From a virus (lineage: Duplodnaviria > Heunggongvirae > Uroviricota > Caudoviricetes): a DNA stretch of 11,452 bases. The notes below the pieces were generated by a model. The model was not told where the DNA came from and did no database searches. It saw only the letters and a list, made by a program, of their open reading frames with translations. Both the position numbers and the translations under genes were made by a program. The stretch's first letter is position 1; each line of letters begins with the position of its first letter. Where the stretch lies: IMG/VR virus record IMGVR_UViG_2660238548_000003, positions 1 through 11,452 of that record. One strand, given 5' to 3'. Positions 1 through 7,330 of this stretch are shown piece after piece.

Positions 1-110
1 TTATCAGTGTCTTTTTTCGTTACCGATTCCAATTCAAGTTCGTTCAGACGATGACGAAGTGTGTGTGCTGCAATCTCCTGGATTGAAGGAGGTAAATCTT
101 TAAATTCCAT
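1..110 (-). CDS. Small protein, 5' end present and 3' end running off the window (YdfB-like by position in a dicB-type operon)
   Basis: Minus-strand ATG at 110-108 preceded by GAGG 6 nt upstream and directly after the ydfA-like stop; reads MEFKDLPPSIQEIAAHTLRHRLNELELESVTKKDTD to the window edge. Not in the ORF track because it is truncated. Assignment rests on synteny only. Confidence 0.45.
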   Translation of the reverse strand, partial: MEFKDLPPSIQEIAAHTLRHRLNELELESVTKKDTD

Positions 111-121
111 CGTCAACCTCA

Positions 122-274
122 TCAGTCAGTGTTTCTGGCTAACCAGCGACGCGCGCCAGCTTCAGTTTTAAACGTTTTGCTTCTGGTATACGTCATCGCG
201 GTAAACGTGCCGTCCAGGTTGGGGAATACTCCGTATACCAGAGATTCGTTGTTGCCAAGATCGATAGTATCCAT
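122..274 (-). CDS. ydfA: YdfA-like small protein (50 aa), first gene downstream of dicA in the dicB-type operon
   Basis: Track ORF 122..418 trimmed to the internal ATG at 274-272, which has a GAGG Shine-Dalgarno 5 nt upstream; the longer start would overlap the operator repeats. Product MDTIDLGNNESLVYGVFPNLDGTFTAMTYTRSKTFKTEAGARRWLARNTD. Size and position immediately downstream of dicA match ydfA. Confidence 0.6.
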   Translation of the reverse strand: MDTIDLGNNESLVYGVFPNLDGTFTAMTYTRSKTFKTEAGARRWLARNTD

Positions 275-351
275 GTTGACCTCATTTCCCCTTAACGCCG
301 GGTAGCGGAACTGTTTGCTGAGAACACCGTGCGGTGTCTTGATGCAAGCAA

Positions 352-404
352 GATTAGTCATGGCTAACAAATTGGTCAAGCATTTTTGTTTGCCATGACT
401 AACA
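352..404. promoter_or_regulatory. Two operator-like sites (352-369 and inverted 387-404), consensus TGTTAG-TCATGG-CTAACA; likely DicA operator at the promoter of the leftward ydfA operon
   Basis: 17-bp exact repeat TTAGTCATGGCTAACAA at 354-370 and 900-916; an inverted 16/17 copy at 386-402. Sits between the dicA terminator-like palindrome and the ydfA start. A -35-like TTGACC lies on the minus strand at 374-379. Confidence 0.55.
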
Positions 405-420
405 TTTTGGGCAACCAAAA

Positions 421-445
421 AGATAACGCATTGATTGCGTTATCT
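421..445 (-). terminator. Palindrome AGATAACGCA-ttgat-TGCGTTATCT overlapping the dicA stop; candidate intrinsic terminator insulating dicA from the downstream operon
   Basis: Perfect 10-bp inverted arms with a 5-nt loop; on the minus strand it is followed by a U5 run, and on the plus strand by TTTTGTTTGTT, so it could act in either direction. Stem is only moderately GC-rich. Confidence 0.45.
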
Positions 446-847
446 TTTGTTTGTTCGTTGACGGGCTTTTAATAACTCTTCAAAGAGTTTGTTGAAATTT
501 TTTACTCGGGCGCGCATCTCGGTGAGCTGAGCATCCTGTTCTGATTCAGGCAATGCATTAAAAAGCTCAAGGAGCTCATGTTCTTTGGGGGATAGAGCAA
601 CTGGCTCCTCAATAGGTGGTGATGGCTGCTTGTCTTCATCGCCAAATAGAATCCATGTTGGCGAGCACTGCAGTACTTTGCTGAGGGCAAAAAGATTCTT
701 TCCTGTAGGTTCGCTATCATCCCGCTCCCATTGTGAAACCGATACGTGAGAAATTTTCAGGGCTTTAGCAAGAGACCTTTGGGTGTATTTGAGGTTTTTT
801 CGGCGATATCTAATGCGTTCGCCAATGGTTAAATTTTTTGTATCCAT
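440..847 (-). CDS. dicA: DicA-like repressor (135 aa, XRE-family HTH, no S24 peptidase domain)
   Basis: Track ORF 440..847. N-terminal HTH segment TQRSLAKALKISHVSVSQWERDDSEPTGKNLFALSKVL; 135 aa; divergent from a 76-aa Cro-like gene, with ydfA-like and ydfB-like ORFs downstream. Sequence matches my recollection of E. coli DicA closely. Confidence 0.85.
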   Translation of the reverse strand: MDTKNLTIGERIRYRRKNLKYTQRSLAKALKISHVSVSQWERDDSEPTGKNLFALSKVLQCSPTWILFGDEDKQPSPPIEEPVALSPKEHELLELFNALPESEQDAQLTEMRARVKNFNKLFEELLKARQRTNKR

Positions 848-869
848 AGTTAGCTAATGCTAAATCTTA

Positions 870-915
870 TTGACTATGTTTTTGTTAACATCTATTTTGT
901 TAGTCATGGCTAACA
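870..915 (+). promoter_or_regulatory. Candidate dicC promoter (-35 TTGACT 870-875, -10 TATTTT 893-898) overlapping a perfect palindromic operator TGTTAG-tcatgg-CTAACA (898-915)
   Basis: 17-bp spacing between the hexamers; the operator is the third copy of the repeat seen at 354-370 and shares the 6-bp inverted arms. Lies in the dicA-dicC divergent intergenic region. Confidence 0.5.
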
Positions 916-930
916 ATTAAGGTGCTTTAA

Positions 931-1161
931 ATGCTTAAAACTGACGCACTTTTGTATTTCGGTTCAAAAACAAAACTTGCACAAGCTGCTGGTATTCGTT
1001 TGGCTTCGCTTTATAGCTGGAAAGGGGAGCTAGTACCTGAAGGTCGCGCGATGCGCCTGCAAGAGGCATCCGGCGGGGAACTTCAGTACGACCCCAAAGT
1101 TTATGACGAATATCGTAAGGCAAAGCGGGCGGGGCGGTTGAACAATGAAAATCACCCCTGA
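931..1161 (+). CDS. dicC: DicC-like Cro-type regulator (76 aa)
   Basis: Track ORF 931..1161. AAGGTG Shine-Dalgarno 6 nt upstream of the ATG; 76 aa; divergent from dicA; matches my recollection of DicC (MLKTDALLYFGSKTKLAQAAGIRLASLYSWKG...). Confidence 0.8.
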   Translation: MLKTDALLYFGSKTKLAQAAGIRLASLYSWKGELVPEGRAMRLQEASGGELQYDPKVYDEYRKAKRAGRLNNENHP

Positions 1162-1666
1162 ACAGGTTTGTGAGGCTCTGGATGCCTGGGTATGTCGACC
1201 AGGAATGACACAGGAGCAGGCGACGATATTAATCACGGAAGCATTCTGGGCTCTGAAAGAACGCCCGAACATCGATGTTCAACGCGTCACGTTTAATGAT
1301 GGCGAGGTTGATCAACGGGCGCTGGGCGTTAACCGGGTGAAGATATTCGAACGCTGGAAAGCTATCGACACCAGGGATAAGCGGGAAAAATTCACGGCGC
1401 TGATTCCGGCAATTATGGAGGCTATCCGGATCAGCGATTTCAGATTGTATTGTGAAATTACTGACGGAAAAAGCATTACGTACATGATCGCCGGGTTAAA
1501 CAAAGAATATGGCGATGTGGTGGAGTCCGGGCTGCTTTTTGCGGATCCAGCTGTTGTGGAACGTGAAACTGACGAGCTTATAGAAAAAGCTATTGCTTTC
1601 AAGCATGCGTATCGTCAGCAATATCAACAAAAAGCCGGATGGAATTATGAGTCTTCTTTTTGCTGA
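1145..1666 (+). CDS. YdaT-like (CII-like) early regulator, 173 aa
   Basis: Track ORF 1145..1666; overlaps the dicC stop by 17 nt. Position immediately after the Cro-like gene, and N-terminus MKITPEQVCEALDAW plus a KIFERW...LIPAIMEAI segment, resemble Rac YdaT as I recall it. Family assignment unverified. Confidence 0.55.
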   Translation: MKITPEQVCEALDAWVCRPGMTQEQATILITEAFWALKERPNIDVQRVTFNDGEVDQRALGVNRVKIFERWKAIDTRDKREKFTALIPAIMEAIRISDFRLYCEITDGKSITYMIAGLNKEYGDVVESGLLFADPAVVERETDELIEKAIAFKHAYRQQYQQKAGWNYESSFC

Positions 1667-2612
1667 ACGCCCACTGGTTATTAACACTCAGCTGGCGATG
1701 AAAATAGGTCTGAACGAAGCCATTGTGTTACAGCAGCTGCATTACTGGTTGAGAGATACCGGTTCCGGCATGGAATGTGATGGTGTTCGCTGGATTTATA
1801 ACACAACAGAACAATGGCTGGAACAGTTCCCGTTCTGGTCAGAGTCAACGTTAAAACGCGCATTTGCAAGTCTGAAAACGCTGGGGCTTTTGCGTTGCGA
1901 AAAGCTCAACAAATCAAAGCGTGATATGACTAATTTTTACACGATTAATTACGAGAGCGAGCTTTTAGATGGTGGCAAAGTGAGCGAATCCATCAGGTCA
2001 AAATGCGCCGCTCCATCAGGTCAAAATGACACGATGGAAGAGGCCAAAATGGCACGCTCCATTGGTTCAAAACGACCCAATGTCATCGGGTCAAAATGGC
2101 CTGATGATCTTACAGAGAATACAACAGAGATTACTACAGAGAATAAAAACACTTCTCGTCCGGAAGCTTCGCAACCGGACATGCAGACGGCTGAACAGGA
2201 TTTTTTAAACCGACACCCTGACGCGGTTGTGTTCAGTGCGAAAAAACGCCAGTGGGGCAGCCAGGAGGATTTAGCGTGTGCGCAGTGGATCTGGGGACGA
2301 ATCGTGAGTCTTTACGAGCAGGCTGCCAGCGATGATGGCGAAATCATGCGACCGAAAGAACCAAACTGGACTGCATGGGCCAATGATGTGCGCACAATGC
2401 GGATGCTGGATGGCAGAACTCACAGACAAATTTGCGAAATGTTTGGTCGGGTACAGCGGGATCCATTCTGGGTAAAAAACGTCATGAGCCCGTCAAAGCT
2501 TCGCGAAAAATGGGATGAGCTGGTTATTCGTCTGGGGCGTTCGCCTGTACAGCGTTGTGTAAAACATATTTCTGAACCGGACACCGAAATTCCGCCGGGA
2601 TTCAGGGGGTAA
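1647..2612 (+). CDS. Replication initiator, lambda O-like / YdaU-like, containing the ori iterons
   Basis: Track ORF 1593..2612 begins at a TTG; I prefer ATG 1647 (MSLLFAERPLVINTQLAMKIGLNEAIVLQQLHYWL), with ATG 1605 as an alternative. Internal direct repeats at 1987-2099 are typical of an origin inside an O-type gene; immediately followed by a DnaC-like gene. Confidence 0.7.
   Translation: MSLLFAERPLVINTQLAMKIGLNEAIVLQQLHYWLRDTGSGMECDGVRWIYNTTEQWLEQFPFWSESTLKRAFASLKTLGLLRCEKLNKSKRDMTNFYTINYESELLDGGKVSESIRSKCAAPSGQNDTMEEAKMARSIGSKRPNVIGSKWPDDLTENTTEITTENKNTSRPEASQPDMQTAEQDFLNRHPDAVVFSAKKRQWGSQEDLACAQWIWGRIVSLYEQAASDDGEIMRPKEPNWTAWANDVRTMRMLDGRTHRQICEMFGRVQRDPFWVKNVMSPSKLREKWDELVIRLGRSPVQRCVKHISEPDTEIPPGFRG
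1987..2150. repeat. Origin-like iteron array: five ~19-bp direct repeats at ~23-bp spacing with core TCAAAATG, then an AT-rich tract with three tandem ACAGAGA(A/T)TA 12-mers
   Basis: Repeat units start at 1987, 2010, 2033 (degenerate), 2056 and 2081; for example AATCCATCAGGTCAAAATG and GCTCCATCAGGTCAAAATG. AT-rich repeats lie at 2111-2145. All are inside the O-like CDS, as in lambda ori. Confidence 0.7.
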
Positions 2613-2618
2613 CGAAGC

Positions 2619-3359
2619 ATGAAAAATATTGCGACAGGCGGTGTTCTTGAACGCATCCGTAAGCTGGCTCCGCAGCATGTAACCGCGCCATACCGAACAG
2701 TGGACGAGTGGCGCGAGTGGCAACTTGCAGAAGGCCAGAAGCGTTGTGAGGAGATCAACCGCCAGAATCGTCAGTTGCGGGTGGAAAAAATTCTGAATCG
2801 CTCCGGCATCCAGCCGTTGCACCGCAAGTGCTCGTTTGCGAATTACCAGGTGCAGAATGACGGCCAGCGATACGCGTTGAGCCAGGCGAAATCCATCGCC
2901 GATGAACTGATGACCGGATGCACAAATTTCGCATTCAGCGGAAAACCTGGTACCGGGAAAAACCACTTAGCGGCGGCTATCGGGAATCGCCTGCTGAAAG
3001 ATGGCCAGACAGTGATTGTGGTTACCGTGGCTGATGTTATGAGTGCTCTACACGCCAGCTATGACGACGGGCAATCAGGCGAAAAATTTTTGCGGGAACT
3101 GTGCGAAGTGGATCTGCTGGTTCTTGATGAAATTGGCATTCAGCGCGAGACGAAAAACGAGCAGGTGGTACTGCACCAGATTGTTGACCGCCGGACGGCA
3201 TCACTGCGCAGTGTCGGGATGCTGACAAACCTGAATCATGCCGCAATGAGCACGCTTCTTGGTGAGAGGATTATGGACCGGATGACCATGAACGGTGGTC
3301 GTTGGGTGAATTTTAACTGGGAGAGCTGGCGGTCAAACGTTGGACGTCAGGGTATGTGA
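2619..3359 (+). CDS. DnaC-like helicase loader (AAA+ ATPase), YdaV-like, 246 aa
   Basis: Track ORF 2619..3359. Walker A FSGKPGTGKNHLAAAIG and Walker B LLVLDEIG; length and motifs match DnaC/IstB-type loaders; directly downstream of the O-like gene. Confidence 0.85.
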   Translation: MKNIATGGVLERIRKLAPQHVTAPYRTVDEWREWQLAEGQKRCEEINRQNRQLRVEKILNRSGIQPLHRKCSFANYQVQNDGQRYALSQAKSIADELMTGCTNFAFSGKPGTGKNHLAAAIGNRLLKDGQTVIVVTVADVMSALHASYDDGQSGEKFLRELCEVDLLVLDEIGIQRETKNEQVVLHQIVDRRTASLRSVGMLTNLNHAAMSTLLGERIMDRMTMNGGRWVNFNWESWRSNVGRQGM

Positions 3360-3384
3360 GAATTTTTAACGAGGTGAATTTTCG

Positions 3385-4155
3385 ATGGAAACCGTATTAC
3401 ATGCACTGAAAGCGATGGGAAAAGCCAATTCTGTTGAACTGGCGGCACGAATTGATATCAGCCGTGAAGAAGTTCTCAACGAACTGTGGGAGCTCAAAAA
3501 AAATGGCGTTGTTGATAAAACGGGTCACACCTGGTTTCTGGCTGTCGAAGGTGAATCCCGGGTAACCGAAGAGCGGCCAGTAAAATCTGAAACACAGGAT
3601 ATGCTGACCGAAGAGGTCGCTCCAAAAGTTAGCGCTAACATGATGATTGAGTTTATCGGTCAGGATGGGGCTAAAACCTGTGAAGAAATAGCGGGTAAGT
3701 TCGGTGTCAGTACTCGCAAGGTTGCTTCCACGCTGGCGGTGGTAACCGCAACGGGGCGGCTGGCACGCGTTAATCAGAACGGTAAATTTCGTTACTGCAT
3801 GCCGGGCGATAATTTACCAGCAGAGCCGAAAGCCGCGCTGGTAACGGAAAGTGATGGTAAGGCCTTTTCTCAGCCAGCAGGTGCTGCGTTACCAGTCCGG
3901 GAAGCCGCAACACAGGAAGAAATTAAAACAGAAACTGTGGCGGACATTGTGCAGCCGTTGCCATCGTTTACCGAAACGCAAGCAGATGAGCTGATTTTTC
4001 CGTCCCTTCGCAGGGCAAACCTGGCGCTGCGCAGGGCGAAAAGTGATGTTCAGAAGTGGGAGCGAGTCTGCGCCGCGCTGCGGGAGCTGAACAAGCACCG
4101 GGATATTGTTCGACAGATTACTGATTCTTCCCGCCGTGTTGTATCGGAAAAGTGA
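3385..4155 (+). CDS. Hypothetical protein, 256 aa
   Basis: Track ORF 3385..4155. GAGGTG Shine-Dalgarno 8 nt upstream of the ATG; long clean ORF in the operon direction. No family recognised with confidence. Confidence 0.6.
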   Translation: METVLHALKAMGKANSVELAARIDISREEVLNELWELKKNGVVDKTGHTWFLAVEGESRVTEERPVKSETQDMLTEEVAPKVSANMMIEFIGQDGAKTCEEIAGKFGVSTRKVASTLAVVTATGRLARVNQNGKFRYCMPGDNLPAEPKAALVTESDGKAFSQPAGAALPVREAATQEEIKTETVADIVQPLPSFTETQADELIFPSLRRANLALRRAKSDVQKWERVCAALRELNKHRDIVRQITDSSRRVVSEK

Positions 4156-4170
4156 TTGCCGGAGGCGCTT

Positions 4171-4563
4171 ATGGCAAAAGTATTTACACCAGAAGAGCGG
4201 GAAGAAGTGAAGGCGCGCATTGTGGAATTCGTGCGCCTGAGCGGACGAGAAACTTTTCGACAACTGGCAGATAAAACGGGTGTCAGTAAGACCGCTATTC
4301 GTCGTTTATCTGGTGCGCTTGCGGCCAGTGGTGATGTCTGGCTCTCTGGTTGCGGGGTATTTCCATCAGAGCAGGCGTATCGCGTATGGCGTAAGACACC
4401 GGAGAAGGCTGCTGACCCGACACTGATTCGAAAGTTACCTGACGGAGAAATACGTCGTTACAACAGACGGCAGAACATAATTTGTCGTGAGTGCCGCCAG
4501 AGCGAAGTTATGCAGCGTGTGCTGGCGTTCTATCGGGGAAACTTTCAGGAGGTGATGGAGTGA
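4171..4563 (+). CDS. Hypothetical protein, ~130 aa, with an HTH-like segment and a C-terminal CxxC
   Basis: Track ORF 4156..4563 starts at a TTG; ATG 4171 has GGAGG 5 nt upstream. Contains FRQLADKTGVSKTAIRRL and ICRECRQ. Confidence 0.55.
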   Translation: MAKVFTPEEREEVKARIVEFVRLSGRETFRQLADKTGVSKTAIRRLSGALAASGDVWLSGCGVFPSEQAYRVWRKTPEKAADPTLIRKLPDGEIRRYNRRQNIICRECRQSEVMQRVLAFYRGNFQEVME

Positions 4564-4856
4564 GGGTGAGAGTTTATATTGCCGGTCCAATGACGGGATA
4601 TGAAAATTTCAACCGTGAGGCGTTTCACAAGGCGGAAGAGGAACTGAAACGGGAAGGGCATACCGTCTTAAACCCGGCAGTACTTCCGGACGGGCTGACA
4701 CAGCCGCACTACATGGATATTTGCATGGCAATGATTCGTTGCGTGGATGCGATTTACATGCTGAATGGCTGGCAGCGGTCAGCGGGCGCTAAGGCAGAGC
4801 TGGCACTGGCGGAGAAACTGGGACATGCGGTGATTTATCAGGAGGTGGCTCAATGA
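4560..4856 (+). CDS. DUF4406-like protein (nucleoside 2-deoxyribosyltransferase-like fold family), ~98 aa
   Basis: Track ORF 4491..4856 trimmed to GTG 4560, which overlaps the upstream stop (GTGA) and has AGGAGG 8 nt upstream. Motifs VYIAGPMTGY, VLNP and NGWQRSAGAKAELALA match my recollection of DUF4406 proteins. Unverified. Confidence 0.6.
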   Translation: MRVRVYIAGPMTGYENFNREAFHKAEEELKREGHTVLNPAVLPDGLTQPHYMDICMAMIRCVDAIYMLNGWQRSAGAKAELALAEKLGHAVIYQEVAQ

Positions 4857-5467
4857 GAGAGGTTAACTATGAGGCGCTTCGTGAAGCAGCAGAGAAAGCA
4901 ACTAAAGGATGCTACATCGTAGGGCATACATCGGGCAATCAGCATGGGAATATAACAGGAGTTTTTGTTTGTCAAAAATGGAAAGGAGAACCCGGTGGCG
5001 TGATTGCGGAATGTCATGTTAACTGCCTGATTGAATCAGATGCTCAGGCTTATGCAAACGCTGAATTCATAGCAGAGGCTAACCCGGCTACCGTGCTGGA
5101 ATTACTGGATGAACTGGAAGCCCAAAGCAAACGCATTGCAGAGCTGGAGACTAATCTTGCTGCGCTTGCGGCGGAGAATGCGGGGCTGAATAAATTTATC
5201 GTACAGAGTTGCTACGTGTTTGATGGCGAGCAGGATGAACTATCTGATGCGTATATCTGTGCAATAGACGGAAGGATGCCGCAAATCCCAGCCACCGACG
5301 CTTTCCTGGCGGATGTGCGGGCTGGGGCGTTTAACGACCTTTGCGCGGCGTTTGTCAGGCACGCAAAAATTGCAGGACTGGACGATGGCGATCTCGTTAC
5401 GGTGAAAGAAGCGACTGATGCGCTGCTGCACTGTGCAGAACAGCTTCGGGAGGGATTCAAGCAATGA
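4853..5467 (+). CDS. ead/Ea22-like family protein, 204 aa
   Basis: Track ORF 4853..5467. ATGA start/stop overlap with the upstream gene and GGAGG 6 nt upstream. Contains NPATVLELLDELEAQSKRIAELETNLAALAAENAGL, a coiled-coil signature I associate with Ea22-like prophage proteins. Confidence 0.5.
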   Translation: MREVNYEALREAAEKATKGCYIVGHTSGNQHGNITGVFVCQKWKGEPGGVIAECHVNCLIESDAQAYANAEFIAEANPATVLELLDELEAQSKRIAELETNLAALAAENAGLNKFIVQSCYVFDGEQDELSDAYICAIDGRMPQIPATDAFLADVRAGAFNDLCAAFVRHAKIAGLDDGDLVTVKEATDALLHCAEQLREGFKQ

Positions 5468-5748
5468 GTGAATCAAAATGTCAGATTAATGGCAATCAGA
5501 TAGAGCCGTGCGCGGCGTTGTCAAAATCTCTCGAATATGGAAATCCAACGTTCAAGAGTAAAGGGATATTTATCCCGGAGCGTGTGAACATAAACACTGG
5601 CGAGTCAGGCTTGGATATTGCTCAAATTCACTCTGGGAAATATATCGGTCGTGGCGTTGCAATGTGCTTTTGCCCGTTCTGTGGTGAAAGTTTGAAAACG
5701 TGGGAGGAAACGAGTGAGCAATACAAAAAATCATGGCATGAAATTTAA
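5464..5748 (+). CDS. Hypothetical small protein, 94 aa, with a C-terminal CPFCGE motif
   Basis: Track ORF 5464..5748. ATGA overlap with the upstream stop (translational coupling). Function unknown. Confidence 0.5.
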   Translation: MSESKCQINGNQIEPCAALSKSLEYGNPTFKSKGIFIPERVNINTGESGLDIAQIHSGKYIGRGVAMCFCPFCGESLKTWEETSEQYKKSWHEI

Positions 5749-6319
5749 AGGAACACCAGGTCCATGGCATGTAAGTTTCCACGGTTCAGCTAATTGCTGG
5801 GTAGTGGATAGTGAACGCGATAAGGCAATTGCTAAGGTGACAGAATACAACAATGACTGGCAGATGCAGAAAGCTAATTTTCAGCTTTTAGCGGCAGCAC
5901 CAGAATTACTTGAAGCCCTGCAAGCGGTGGTTCGTGTTGCTGACAGAAAAACCGATGAATTCGAAATGGCCCATTCTGCAATTAACAAAGCATTAGGAGT
6001 GATACTGATGAACGTAATTAAAGAAATACCAGTAATGCGTGATGAATATGGCTGCTGGACGCATCCTGAATATGAAAAATTCTGTGATGGTCGGGAATAT
6101 ATTTCAACGGAAGAGTTTAACGCCTGGATGGAGGAAAATAATCTTCAATACGTCCTCTGCTTCAGAGATGAAGGATGTGCTGACCTTGATGCGTGTGATG
6201 CTGATATTTCTGCATGGGAACCGGAACGACCAGAGGGCGATGGCTGGTTTATTGGTTCCATTCATGATACGGAAGATGGCCCGGTTTGTGTCTGGTTGCG
6301 AAATAAGGCTGAAGCATAA
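5714..6319 (+). CDS. Hypothetical protein, 201 aa, with an Ea22-like N-terminal motif (GTPGPWHV...LLAAAPELLEAL)
   Basis: Track ORF 5714..6319. GTG start with GGAGG 6 nt upstream; overlaps the previous gene by 35 nt. An in-frame ATG at 5738 is an alternative start without a Shine-Dalgarno. Confidence 0.55.
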   Translation: MSNTKNHGMKFKGTPGPWHVSFHGSANCWVVDSERDKAIAKVTEYNNDWQMQKANFQLLAAAPELLEALQAVVRVADRKTDEFEMAHSAINKALGVILMNVIKEIPVMRDEYGCWTHPEYEKFCDGREYISTEEFNAWMEENNLQYVLCFRDEGCADLDACDADISAWEPERPEGDGWFIGSIHDTEDGPVCVWLRNKAEA

Positions 6320-6423
6320 AGGCGATAAACCAACTAACAACTAAATACTGAAGATTTAAATCAGAAACGATTTTTATTAAATCCTTAACCGGAGGGATTC
6401 CTGCACCCTCAGAACATCAGGAG

Positions 6424-6441
6424 GCCGCCCGAAAGGGCGGT
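6424..6441 (+). other. GC-rich hairpin with a GAAA (GNRA) tetraloop in the 6320-6516 intergenic region
   Basis: GCCGCCC-GAAA-GGGCGGT. No U-run follows on either strand, so it is not a canonical intrinsic terminator; possibly an mRNA-stabilising or processing element. Confidence 0.4.
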
Positions 6442-6516
6442 AATAAAAATGGCAGAACTAACTAAAGAATGGTTGCAACAAACAATTACTGATATTCAGA
6501 GCAATTGAGGTGAGAA

Positions 6517-6687
6517 ATGCGGATGGAAAATTGTTTATTGCCGTATCTGGTGCGGTTTGGGGCGTCGTCATTAACAGTTATTCCACATGTCATGATGGCT
6601 GACAATATTATCCCGGCACCAAAGCGCCATACCGGTATTGCAGCGGCGCGACGTGCAGCAAAGAGACGCAGGAGAGCAAAACGATGA
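6517..6687 (+). CDS. Small basic ORF (56 aa, or ~31 aa from the internal MMADN start), not in the ORF track
   Basis: ATG 6517 with GAGGTG 4 nt upstream; ends ...RRAAKRRRRAKR with a TGA overlapping the next ATG (ATGA at 6684). Coding status uncertain. Confidence 0.35.
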   Translation: MRMENCLLPYLVRFGASSLTVIPHVMMADNIIPAPKRHTGIAAARRAAKRRRRAKR

Positions 6688-6875
6688 AAAACCGTAAAGC
6701 AAAGATGCTTATTTCCCGTGTATACAGACGTTGCTATCCCAGCCAGTGGTTGAGAGTTAGCAATCGCCGTGTGGTGTTGTACTTATATTCTGGAATTGCC
6801 AGAGAGGGAATCAAAGATAAGCGCAGCGCGGCGCAAAACCGCTGGAAAAACCACTTGCGCACTAAAGGAGCTTGA
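6684..6875 (+). CDS. Hypothetical small basic protein, 63 aa
   Basis: Track ORF 6684..6875. GGAG ~9 nt upstream; tightly packed with flanking ORFs. Confidence 0.45.
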   Translation: MKNRKAKMLISRVYRRCYPSQWLRVSNRRVVLYLYSGIAREGIKDKRSAAQNRWKNHLRTKGA

Positions 6876-6876
6876 T

Positions 6877-7086
6877 ATGGCTATTGCCGCAAGTTACACC
6901 ATGCATCTCTACTGTGATTGTCGCCAGTGTACAAATGGTAAATATCAGTCACCAGACTTCGGTGAGTATATAGGTACGTCATGGGCTGGCTGTGCAAAAG
7001 AGGCGCGCAAGGATGGCTGGCGAATAAGCAAAGACAAAACGCGTGCTTTTTCACCCGGGCATAAAGTTTTGAGGATTAACAAATGA
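6877..7086 (+). CDS. Hypothetical Cys-rich small protein, 69 aa
   Basis: Track ORF 6769..7086 trimmed to ATG 6877 (AAAGGAG 6 nt upstream), which starts 1 nt after the previous stop. Product MAIAASYTMHLYCDCRQCTNGKYQ... Confidence 0.5.
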   Translation: MAIAASYTMHLYCDCRQCTNGKYQSPDFGEYIGTSWAGCAKEARKDGWRISKDKTRAFSPGHKVLRINK

Positions 7087-7322
7087 CAACATTTACCGAC
7101 GACGACAAGAAACTAATTAAAGAAATCAAAGAGCGTATCAGCAGCCTGGAGGTTCGAGACGATATTGAGCGCCGGGCTTATGAAATAGCGTTAGCCTCGC
7201 TGGAAGCAGAGCCGGTGGCATGGCTGCATTCAGACAATGGCTTAGGTATTCCGGCAATAACGAGGAGTAAAAACATTGCTGACAGTTATCAAAGAGCTGG
7301 TATGTTCAGCCGCTATATATAG
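7083..7322 (+). CDS. Hypothetical protein, 79 aa; possibly the N-terminal part of a gene split by a frameshift
   Basis: Track ORF 7083..7322. ATGA overlap with the upstream stop and GAGGA 8 nt upstream. The downstream ORF is open in another frame across 7283-7322. Confidence 0.5.
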   Translation: MTTFTDDDKKLIKEIKERISSLEVRDDIERRAYEIALASLEAEPVAWLHSDNGLGIPAITRSKNIADSYQRAGMFSRYI

Positions 7323-7330
7323 CCAAGCCA

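Follow-up and report, generated by a model that had tools for sequence, protein, structure and literature searches.

The DNA analysed here, 11,452 nt of a Caudoviricetes virus (IMG/VR record IMGVR_UViG_2660238548_000003, positions 1 to 11,452; hereafter the window), very probably carries an immunity switch of the lysis/lysogeny type that belongs to a Qin-family lambdoid prophage and is orthologous to the dicC-dicA-dicBp region of Escherichia coli K-12, where dicBp is the dicB promoter. This reading draws on the sequences themselves, on the positions of sites relative to consensus promoter elements, on conservation and covariation, and on the K-12 orthology; within it, repressor binding at the two left operators S1 and S2, the geometry of the dicA promoter and transcript termination are predictions. 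Judged by sequence, the operators appear to form a same-specificity ortholog of the K-12 Qin switch, which has been described since the 1980s, and control by a single repressor is the accepted model for the orthologous K-12 locus.

The first-pass annotation of this DNA had assigned the genes to DicA, DicC and YdfA, and these assignments hold. The DicA-type repressor is identical to K-12 DicA at 126 of 135 residues (93%), including the whole helix-turn-helix, the Cro-type protein is identical to K-12 DicC at 73 of 75 aligned residues (97%), and the first gene of the left operon matches DUF1391 (Table 1). No peptidase or cleavage domain was found in the 135-aa repressor, for which a Pfam scan gave only helix-turn-helix-type domains; the best solved-structure relative of its N-terminal domain is the DNA-binding domain of the P22 C2 repressor (E = 4e-20). 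In a DNA alignment with K-12 Qin, the operators Oc, S1 and S2 and the hairpin at the end of dicA all stand in register with the window. The first 1.7 kb of the window is matched in 3,445 of 5,426 complete E. coli genomes, at no more than 8 places per genome, and the RefSeq annotation at the matched places reads dicC, helix-turn-helix protein and DUF1391.

Operators and promoters of the DicA-type switch

In K-12, DicA binds in vivo to a 20-nt inverted repeat, Oc, and an A-to-C change at position 16 abolishes binding (Yun et al. 2012, PMC3441716). K-12 Oc overlaps the -10 of the dicC promoter mapped by rapid amplification of cDNA ends, and DicA at Oc represses dicC and activates dicA (PMC3441716). 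Deletion of dicA induces dicBp 22-fold, the antirepressor is Rem, and DicA is predicted to occlude the promoter (Ragunathan & Vanderpool 2023, PMC10448788); the same paper cites Bejar et al. 1988 for operators between dicA and dicC as well as between dicA and dicBp. For K-12 DicC, chromatin immunoprecipitation sequencing (ChIP-seq) gave one inferred site on either side of dicA, with the palindromic motif TT[ACT]G...C[GAT]AA (2024 preprint, PMC11430063).

In the window, the 17-mer TTAGTCATGGCTAACAA occurs exactly at 354-370 and 900-916 on the plus strand, and a 16/17 copy lies on the minus strand at 386-402, as first reported. A motif search allowing up to 3 mismatches returned 4 matches, against 0.01 expected, and none of 200 shuffles reached 4; the fourth match is the 900-916 site again, which is palindromic and also matches its own opposite strand at 897-913. 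The three copies are parts of the 20-bp sites Oc, S1 and S2. Oc is identical at 18 of 20 positions to K-12 Oc, TTGTTAGTCATAACTAACAA (dicA-sense strand), and both differences fall at central pyrimidine/purine (Y/R) positions. By the K-12 definition, a 20-bp repeat overlapping the dicC -10, the site is Oc, and DicA of this allele is predicted to bind it. The arms TGTTAG/CTAACA, previously given to each site, are both intact in Oc only; one side of S1 reads ATTAG, since this half-site also serves as the -10 TAATCT, and S2 has TGTTTG. Three copies had been taken to define the switch: the three sites are real, but more exist, namely the Oa-like core at 850-863 and the Om-like half-sites at 883-890.

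The positions of the sites relative to promoter elements follow the K-12 arrangement. The dicC promoter was found by promoter scan and has hexamers identical to those of K-12; Oc begins 2 nt inside its -10 and covers +1, which the -11A rule of Yun et al. would put at about 905. At the left promoter, S1 fills the spacer and its outer half is the -10, and S2 and S1 together bracket the -35; transcription is predicted to start at about 343. The earlier placement holds, with one site over the dicC -10/+1 and the other two flanking or overlapping a promoter upstream of ydfA. The proposal of a single repressor acting on both dicC and the left operon is likewise supported, in that the sites occupy the K-12 positions and K-12 DicA represses both dicC and dicBp. 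On the dicA side, a possible -10, CATAGT, would set the centre of Oc near -41 and place Oa at +1 to +20. This geometry is consistent with the reported activation of dicA by Oc-bound DicA at a promoter of no evident consensus (PMC3441716), and +1 to +20 would be a natural place for repression by DicC or for auto-repression. The Oa-like site is nearly invariant across related loci and fits the DicC ChIP-seq motif; it is a candidate DicC or auto-repression site and could shut off dicA in the manner of Cro.

To place the sites in a wider context, they were compared in 80 viral-contig loci with 93-100% DicA identity, in 5 loci from a scan of genome contigs for DicA, including Citrobacter (76%) and Serratia (65%), and in more distant loci reached by exact-protein look-up of homologs in Salmonella, Pantoea, Klebsiella, Cronobacter and Erwinia (64-84% identity). 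All loci share the order Cro-type gene, Oc, repressor, S2, -35, S1/-10 and leader. S2 is present in 97 of 97 loci, with a spacing between the S2 and S1 centres of 35 bp (83 loci), 36 bp (9) or 34 bp (5), and Oc starts 69 nt upstream of the dicA ATG in 93 of 96. The position matrix reads nTGTTAG-YYAT-RR-CTAACAA, with invariant arm bases and the consensus TGTTAG-YYATRR-CTAACA; A16 is found in all 22 unique Oc and all 30 unique S1 sequences. The right arm of S1, which is the -10, is CTAATCT, CTAATAT or CTAACAT, and the right arm of S2 is degenerate. The geometry of the left promoter is kept with other hexamers in Citrobacter (TTGCCA/TAATCT) and Serratia (TTGCAA/TAACAT), and also in Pantoea, Klebsiella, Cronobacter and Erwinia; these comparative data support the predicted left promoter. 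From genus to genus the intergenic DNA around the sites diverges, yet their positions relative to the promoter hexamers stay the same. Absence of the repeats from homologous dicA-dicC regions had been named as the outcome that would count against the switch, and the repeats were found in every enterobacterial homologous locus examined.

The most divergent repressor is instructive in this respect. Cronobacter P0117 (64% identity) has the recognition helix ISHATISLWES in place of ISHVSVSQWER, and its loci (L098 and L099) carry different palindromes, such as TTGTTAAGTTTTATCAACAA, at the Oc, S2 and S1 positions. A changed helix together with changed sites is what one would expect of a repressor that reads these sites, and P0117 looks like a distinct immunity specificity inside the DicA family.

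The centres of the operators behave differently from the arms. Each operator has four central Y/R positions (358-359 and 362-363; 393-394 and 397-398; 904-905 and 908-909), and these 12 positions rank 6th to 61st among 911 alignment columns for diversity within each E. coli clade, nine of them in the top 24; within-clade diversity was used, the total per-column diversity being dominated by two clades. Changes at the centres are transitions only in E. coli-type loci, with a few transversions in more distant genera, whereas neighbouring unconstrained intergenic positions also show transversions. These patterns suggest a reading in which the centres are non-contacted bases under a purine/pyrimidine (shape) constraint. 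In the P22 and 434 operators the central bases are read indirectly. The S1 centre is biased toward ..ATGG, and such hypervariable, site-biased centres hint at tuning of repressor affinity site by site through indirect readout. Within a locus, the centre of each site varies independently of those of the other two, and the exact 17-mer repeat of the window is accordingly a coincidence of variants. Gene conversion between operators was considered for both the 17-mer identity and the hypervariable centres, and was rejected: the Oc and S1 centres are identical in 11 of 63 unique loci, against 8.7 expected under random assortment.

Several observations weigh against this interpretation of the locus. 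The -10 of the left promoter is weak, with 3 of 6 matches, which is why the promoter scan did not call it, and the promoter was read from the sequence. The window extends only ~120 bp beyond ydfA, so that dicB and dicF fall outside it; within the window the claim of a leftward dicB-type operon stands for the promoter and the ydfA-type first gene, and in the closest E. coli relative dicB itself lies ~1.4 kb left of ydfA. Operator binding for this allele is predicted by comparison with K-12. The spacing of S1 and S2 by 35 bp (~3.3 helical turns), which drifts by ±1 bp, is unfit for simple same-face cooperative binding. At K-12 dicBp, the DicA site is rated low-evidence and its location is given as unknown (Reg-Seq, PMC7567609). 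The predicted K-12 sites Oa and Om are not bound by DicA in vivo (PMC3441716), and a lambda-like three-site right side is thus unsupported. In agreement with this, the window has no lambda-type tripartite operator: the right side has a single full site and, besides it, the degenerate Om and Oa, and the left has two sites 35 bp apart.

Three other explanations of the sites can be weighed against these data. The first is that DicA bound at Oc and at S1/S2 loops ~0.5 kb across its own gene, in the manner of lambda CI at OL and OR, tightening repression and tuning dicA autoregulation. In all loci the repressor gene stands between identical sites of high quality whose separation is set by gene length, the Oc centre lies 511 and 546 bp from the left-site centres, and DicA has a separate conserved C-terminal domain; however, there is no evidence of higher-order DicA oligomers, and DicA is without the C-terminal domain of lambda CI. 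We consider looping rather unlikely. The second explanation, which seems improbable, holds that S1 and S2 are mainly DicC sites or shared sites and that DicA controls the left operon otherwise, by a one-site roadblock or an indirect effect. It would account for the K-12 DicC ChIP-seq peaks on each side of dicA, whose motif fits TTAG..CTAA (PMC11430063), for the poor support of the Reg-Seq site at dicB, and for a spacing of S1 and S2 that is not ideal for cooperative binding. Yet deletion of dicC is without effect on basal dicBp activity, in contrast to the 22-fold induction on deletion of dicA (PMC10448788), and S1 and S2 share the invariant arm bases, including A16, with the DicA-binding Oc. 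Sharing of operators between CI-type and Cro-type proteins is moreover normal, so that DicC binding would be an addition to DicA control more than an alternative to it. The third, that the repeats are chance matches or functionless relics of duplication or gene conversion, is hardly credible: the exact 17-mer identity of Oc and S1 is indeed incidental, but the chance expectation is only 0.01 matches, the arm bases are invariant, and the positions relative to the promoter hexamers are kept across genera.

Control by DicA at Oc, S1 and S2 could then work as follows. A DicA-type dimer with a P22-C2-like helix-turn-helix would recognise the 20-bp consensus sites. Bound to Oc, over the dicC -10/+1, it would shut off dicC and, from about -41 of a weak leftward promoter, activate dicA. 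Bound to S1 (spacer and -10) and S2 (upstream of the -35), it would exclude RNA polymerase, so that the toxic left operon (ydfA ... dicF, dicB) is kept silent. DicC most likely would use the sites of DicA, together with Oa at the dicA start, to switch dicA off. The hairpin at 418-448 would terminate the dicA transcript, so that less transcription from the repressor gene, which is expressed constitutively, would run on into the left operon.

Table 1. Coordinates of genes, promoters, operators and RNA elements of the switch in the window
Feature	Position	Strand	Description
ydfA-like gene, first of left operon	122-274	minus	DUF1391, E = 6e-28
Left-operon leader RNA	343-288	minus	Hairpin 338-323, GUUC 311-308, H-type pseudoknot 307-288
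Pseudoknot of the window		minus	Stem 1 307-304/299-296; stem 2 302-300/291-289 (3 bp)
Predicted dicB-operon promoter (PL analog)	351-379	minus	-35 TTGACC 379-374, 17-nt spacer, -10 TAATCT 356-351
S1, promoter-proximal left operator	351-370		AGATTAGTCATGGCTAACAA; degenerate half is the -10 hexamer
S2, promoter-distal left operator	386-405		TTGTTTGCCATGACTAACAT; 6 bp upstream of left -35
Hairpin at the dicA end	418-448	minus	Arms 418-430/436-448, 13 bp, 100% complementary, 5-nt loop
dicA-type repressor gene	440-847	minus	135 aa; Pfam HTH_3/Phage_CI_repr; helix-turn-helix-type domains only
Oa-like site	847-866		Core TTAGCTAATGCTAA 850-863, exact TTAG-N6-CTAA; adjoins dicA start codon
dicC promoter	870-898	plus	-35 TTGACT 870-875, 17-nt spacer, -10 TATTTT 893-898
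Possible dicA promoter -10	878-873	minus	CATAGT; no -35; putative, from sequence
Om-like fused half-sites	883-890		TGTTAACA; in dicC promoter spacer; invariant among E. coli-type loci
Oc, 20-bp inverted repeat at dicC promoter (PR analog)	897-916		TTGTTAGTCATGGCTAACAA
dicC (Cro-type) gene	931-1161	plus	P22_Cro family, E = 1.3e-11; divergent from dicA

The hairpin at the dicA stop codon

A perfect palindrome with 10-bp arms had been noted at 421-445, overlapping the dicA stop. The palindrome is real but longer, with 13-bp arms spanning 418-448, and the stop codon (440-442) lies inside its right arm. It is probably an intrinsic terminator that insulates the left operon from dicA transcription, and a lineage-specific accessory. 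The dicA-sense strand folds at -17.1 kcal/mol (z = -3.8), and 0 of 200 shuffles fold as well. In related loci the inner stem varies in ways that keep pairing (GCA/TGC, ACA/TGT and (A)TCA/TGA), and two single-sided variants (AAAAGG.. and ..GTTATTTTTT) give G.U pairs in the dicA-sense RNA and A.C mismatches on the other strand. This variation of the arms favours an RNA hairpin in the dicA transcript.

There are also points against termination at this place. The dicA-sense U-tract UCUUUUUGGUU is short (5 U, then GGUU) and lies partly inside the stem; the terminator scan scored the site on the plus strand only; and no such hairpin was seen in Citrobacter, Serratia, Pantoea, Klebsiella and one Cronobacter lineage. 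Its absence from several genera marks the hairpin as an accessory and not as something that defines the switch; of the earlier suggestion that it stops read-through, the effect is plausible from the stable fold and the kept pairing, but the defining role is not. Weak hairpins occur at the corresponding place in Salmonella and Erwinia, and Cronobacter L098 (~1900-1940) has there a non-homologous strong terminator with nine U. A further locus, L119, gave a weak Trp_leader match at 2877-2965 (minus), but the matched sequence is in fact a terminator hairpin located ~100 nt before the leader element. The strong terminators of these two lineages suggest recurrent selection for insulation between the repressor gene and the early-left promoter. 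A literature search for a dicA terminator found no papers.

It could be argued that the palindrome is instead a protein-binding site, or a plus-strand terminator against antisense transcription entering dicA. The terminator scan would fit the latter, with its call on the plus strand only (tail TTTTGTTTGTT), as would the more stable plus-strand fold (-23.5 kcal/mol, z = -4.4), and the palindrome is missing from many related loci. These explanations have a small chance of being right, since the compensatory arm changes favour structure over sequence recognition, the single-sided variants pair in the dicA-sense RNA only, no plus-strand gene or promoter lies left of the palindrome within the window, and the C-terminal codons of dicA, rich in Lys and Arg, account for the plus-strand T-run when read in reverse.

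The leader RNA of the left operon

All DicA-type loci, including the most distant, at 64% DicA identity, and those with another first gene, keep the sequence between the predicted +1 (~343) and the start of ydfA (274). We tentatively propose, at somewhat less than even confidence, that the left operators gate a transcript whose first ~55 nt form an RNA module of hairpin, GUUC and pseudoknot, of which no earlier description was found. The order along the leader is a hairpin, an A-rich spacer, GUUC and then the core CGCCAGCCNGGCGAYAAN'GGC. The arms of the hairpin covary among loci (ACACC/GGTGT, AATCAC/GTGATT, AACCAC/GTGGTT and AACAC/GTGTT). The 21-nt core, C-G-C-C-A-G-C-C-N-G-G-C-G-A-Y-A-A-N'-G-G-C, can be drawn as an H-type pseudoknot with stem 1 formed by positions 1-4/10-13, stem 2 by positions 6-9/18-21, A in loop 1 and AYAA in loop 3.

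In an alignment of 26 sequences, 93.7% of cells are paired in this register, against 33-47% in slid registers. The covariation score is 0.283, compared with 0.125 in shuffles, and none of 500 shuffles reaches 0.283. Four of the eight pseudoknot pairs change on both sides (CG/AU, CG/UG/UA, GC/CG and CG/UG/GC/UA), and U.G pairs, which are frequent, identify the strand as the operon's sense strand. The test was made on a trimmed alignment with a structure specified by the analyst; RNAalifold on a MAFFT alignment of whole leaders recovered part of one stem only, because hairpin 1 was misaligned. Five alignment rows with a shorter or longer loop 3 are out of register, which lowers the score rather than raising it. 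A pattern scan supplied five of the 26 rows, and in those rows ascertainment fixes stem 1 and also the 5' strand of stem 2; the covariation in stem 1 and in pair 6-21 comes from DicA-based loci, which were unselected for the element.

The element is distributed well beyond DicA-type prophages. A scan with the exact core found it in at least 120 viral contigs, nearly all of which share the flanks and have unrelated upstream promoters and hairpins. Among loci found independently by KilR homology, most have the element 10-25 nt before kilR, and in a Rac-like variant stem 1 is different but the topology is the same. Gifsy-1, Gifsy-2 and mEp237 carry the element as well. From these comparisons the leader appears to be a module common to Qin-, Rac- and Gifsy-type prophages with unrelated repressors and promoters, its loops being nearly invariant. 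The Shine-Dalgarno sequence of the first early-left gene follows 3-20 nt downstream of it, and this fixed position suggests that the module may act by translational control; antitermination and processing are other candidates.

Known elements do not account for it. A scan of the whole window against Rfam 15 gave no match at E ≤ 1, and the element had none in eight other loci; no paper with the leader sequence was found, and a literature search for kilR and pseudoknots likewise gave nothing relevant. The HK022 put site (~70 nt) lies just downstream of PL and consists of two long stem-loops, unlike the short hairpin and 21-nt pseudoknot of the window, and the putL region, compared by eye, shows no evident similarity. 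Nor is a lambda-type nut site indicated: the covariation supports a pseudoknot and not a boxB hairpin (5-bp stem, pentaloop), and no Arg-rich N-like first open reading frame (ORF) was seen among 96 distinct downstream ORFs inspected by eye. Any resemblance to nutR is confined to the flanks of the leader. A search of the window for a second leader core, as a putR analog, gave nothing convincing.

Toxic kil/dicB-type genes would come under a second layer of control, independent of immunity, if the module is a cis-regulator, for instance a translational operator, a riboswitch-like element or a signal for factor-independent antitermination. A leader pseudoknot ahead of such genes in many enterobacterial prophages may matter more than the operators themselves.

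Some leader-carrying loci show peculiarities of their own. In L074 and L076, similarity to other loci ends inside the pseudoknot core (GTTCCGCTATGGTTATT... and GTTCCGCTATCCGGCGTTAATTGTTAAC...), and these breakpoints look like mosaic recombination junctions. In Citrobacter L005, the leader is followed by a terminator-like hairpin, AAAAAAGCGCCCTTTCGGACGC, and not directly by a Shine-Dalgarno sequence and start codon. One leader-carrying viral contig, L106, has a match to the small RNA isrB at 3655-3748 (plus), scoring 38.4 bits against the Rfam gathering score of 35.

Related switches and the remainder of the window

The closest known system is K-12 Qin (Bejar et al. 1986, 1988; Yun et al. 2012; Ragunathan & Vanderpool 2023), which shares with the window the gene order, regulators of 93% and 97% identity, Oc over the dicC -10, two sites around the promoter downstream of dicA, a hairpin after dicA and a ydfA-type first gene. 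The two differ in the Oc centre, which is ..TCATGG.. on the plus strand of the window and ..TTATGA.. in K-12 Qin, and in the hairpin, which has a perfect 13-bp stem and a longer U-run in the window but a bulged stem and 4 U in K-12 Qin. The gene after ydfA also differs, and the prophage of the window retains O-like and DnaC-like replication genes and nin-region genes, whereas K-12 Qin is decayed.

The P22 immC region resembles the window in the N-terminal DNA-binding domain of its C2 repressor, in a P22_Cro-family partner, and in inverted-repeat operators with conserved outer bases and a variable centre. Unlike C2, DicA has 135 aa, an unrelated C-terminal half and no domain for RecA-dependent autocleavage (K-12 DicA: PMC10448788), and the window has one full right site and two left sites where P22 immC has three adjacent sites each. 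The lambda switch shares the divergent repressor and Cro genes and repressor sites that overlap PR- and PL-type promoters, and lambda-like self-activation from a site near -41 is reported for K-12 DicA at Oc (PMC3441716). Unlike lambda, the window has no tripartite cooperative operator (Om and Oa are unbound in K-12) and its left sites are 35 bp apart, and induction in K-12 is by the antirepressor Rem and not by RecA cleavage (PMC10448788). Gifsy-type prophages likewise have a short non-cleavable repressor directly before the early-left promoter and antirepressor control, and Gifsy-2 has the leader element between the repressor gene and the first early-left ORF; the Gifsy-type repressor belongs to a family different from DicA, and its operators presumably differ.

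The operator result is thus a re-identification of a known switch, and its practical value is one of annotation. The predicted DicA sites at the left promoter, for which Reg-Seq lists no location, can now be placed, and the consensus could be used to predict DicA/DicC targets. The commonness of this immunity type matters for cross-immunity among co-resident Shiga toxin (Stx)-type and cryptic prophages.

To the right of dicC, a YdaT_toxin-family gene (1145-1666, plus) stands in the cII position, its start overlapping the end of dicC (1145 vs 1161). It is followed by a 339-aa ORF in the position of the replication gene O (no Pfam match) and by an IstB/DnaC-like gene. No tRNA genes were found in the nin-type region of the window (3385-11441), and its ORFs at 5464-5748, 5714-6319, 6769-7086 and 7331-7864 have no Pfam match. 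This plus-strand region is of the lambdoid nin type, with DUF1627, DUF977, Ead/Ea22, P63C, DUF968/HNH and RusA. In two Cronobacter loci (L094 and L095) a Phage_CII-family gene replaces YdaT, and the remaining distant loci examined carry YdaT.

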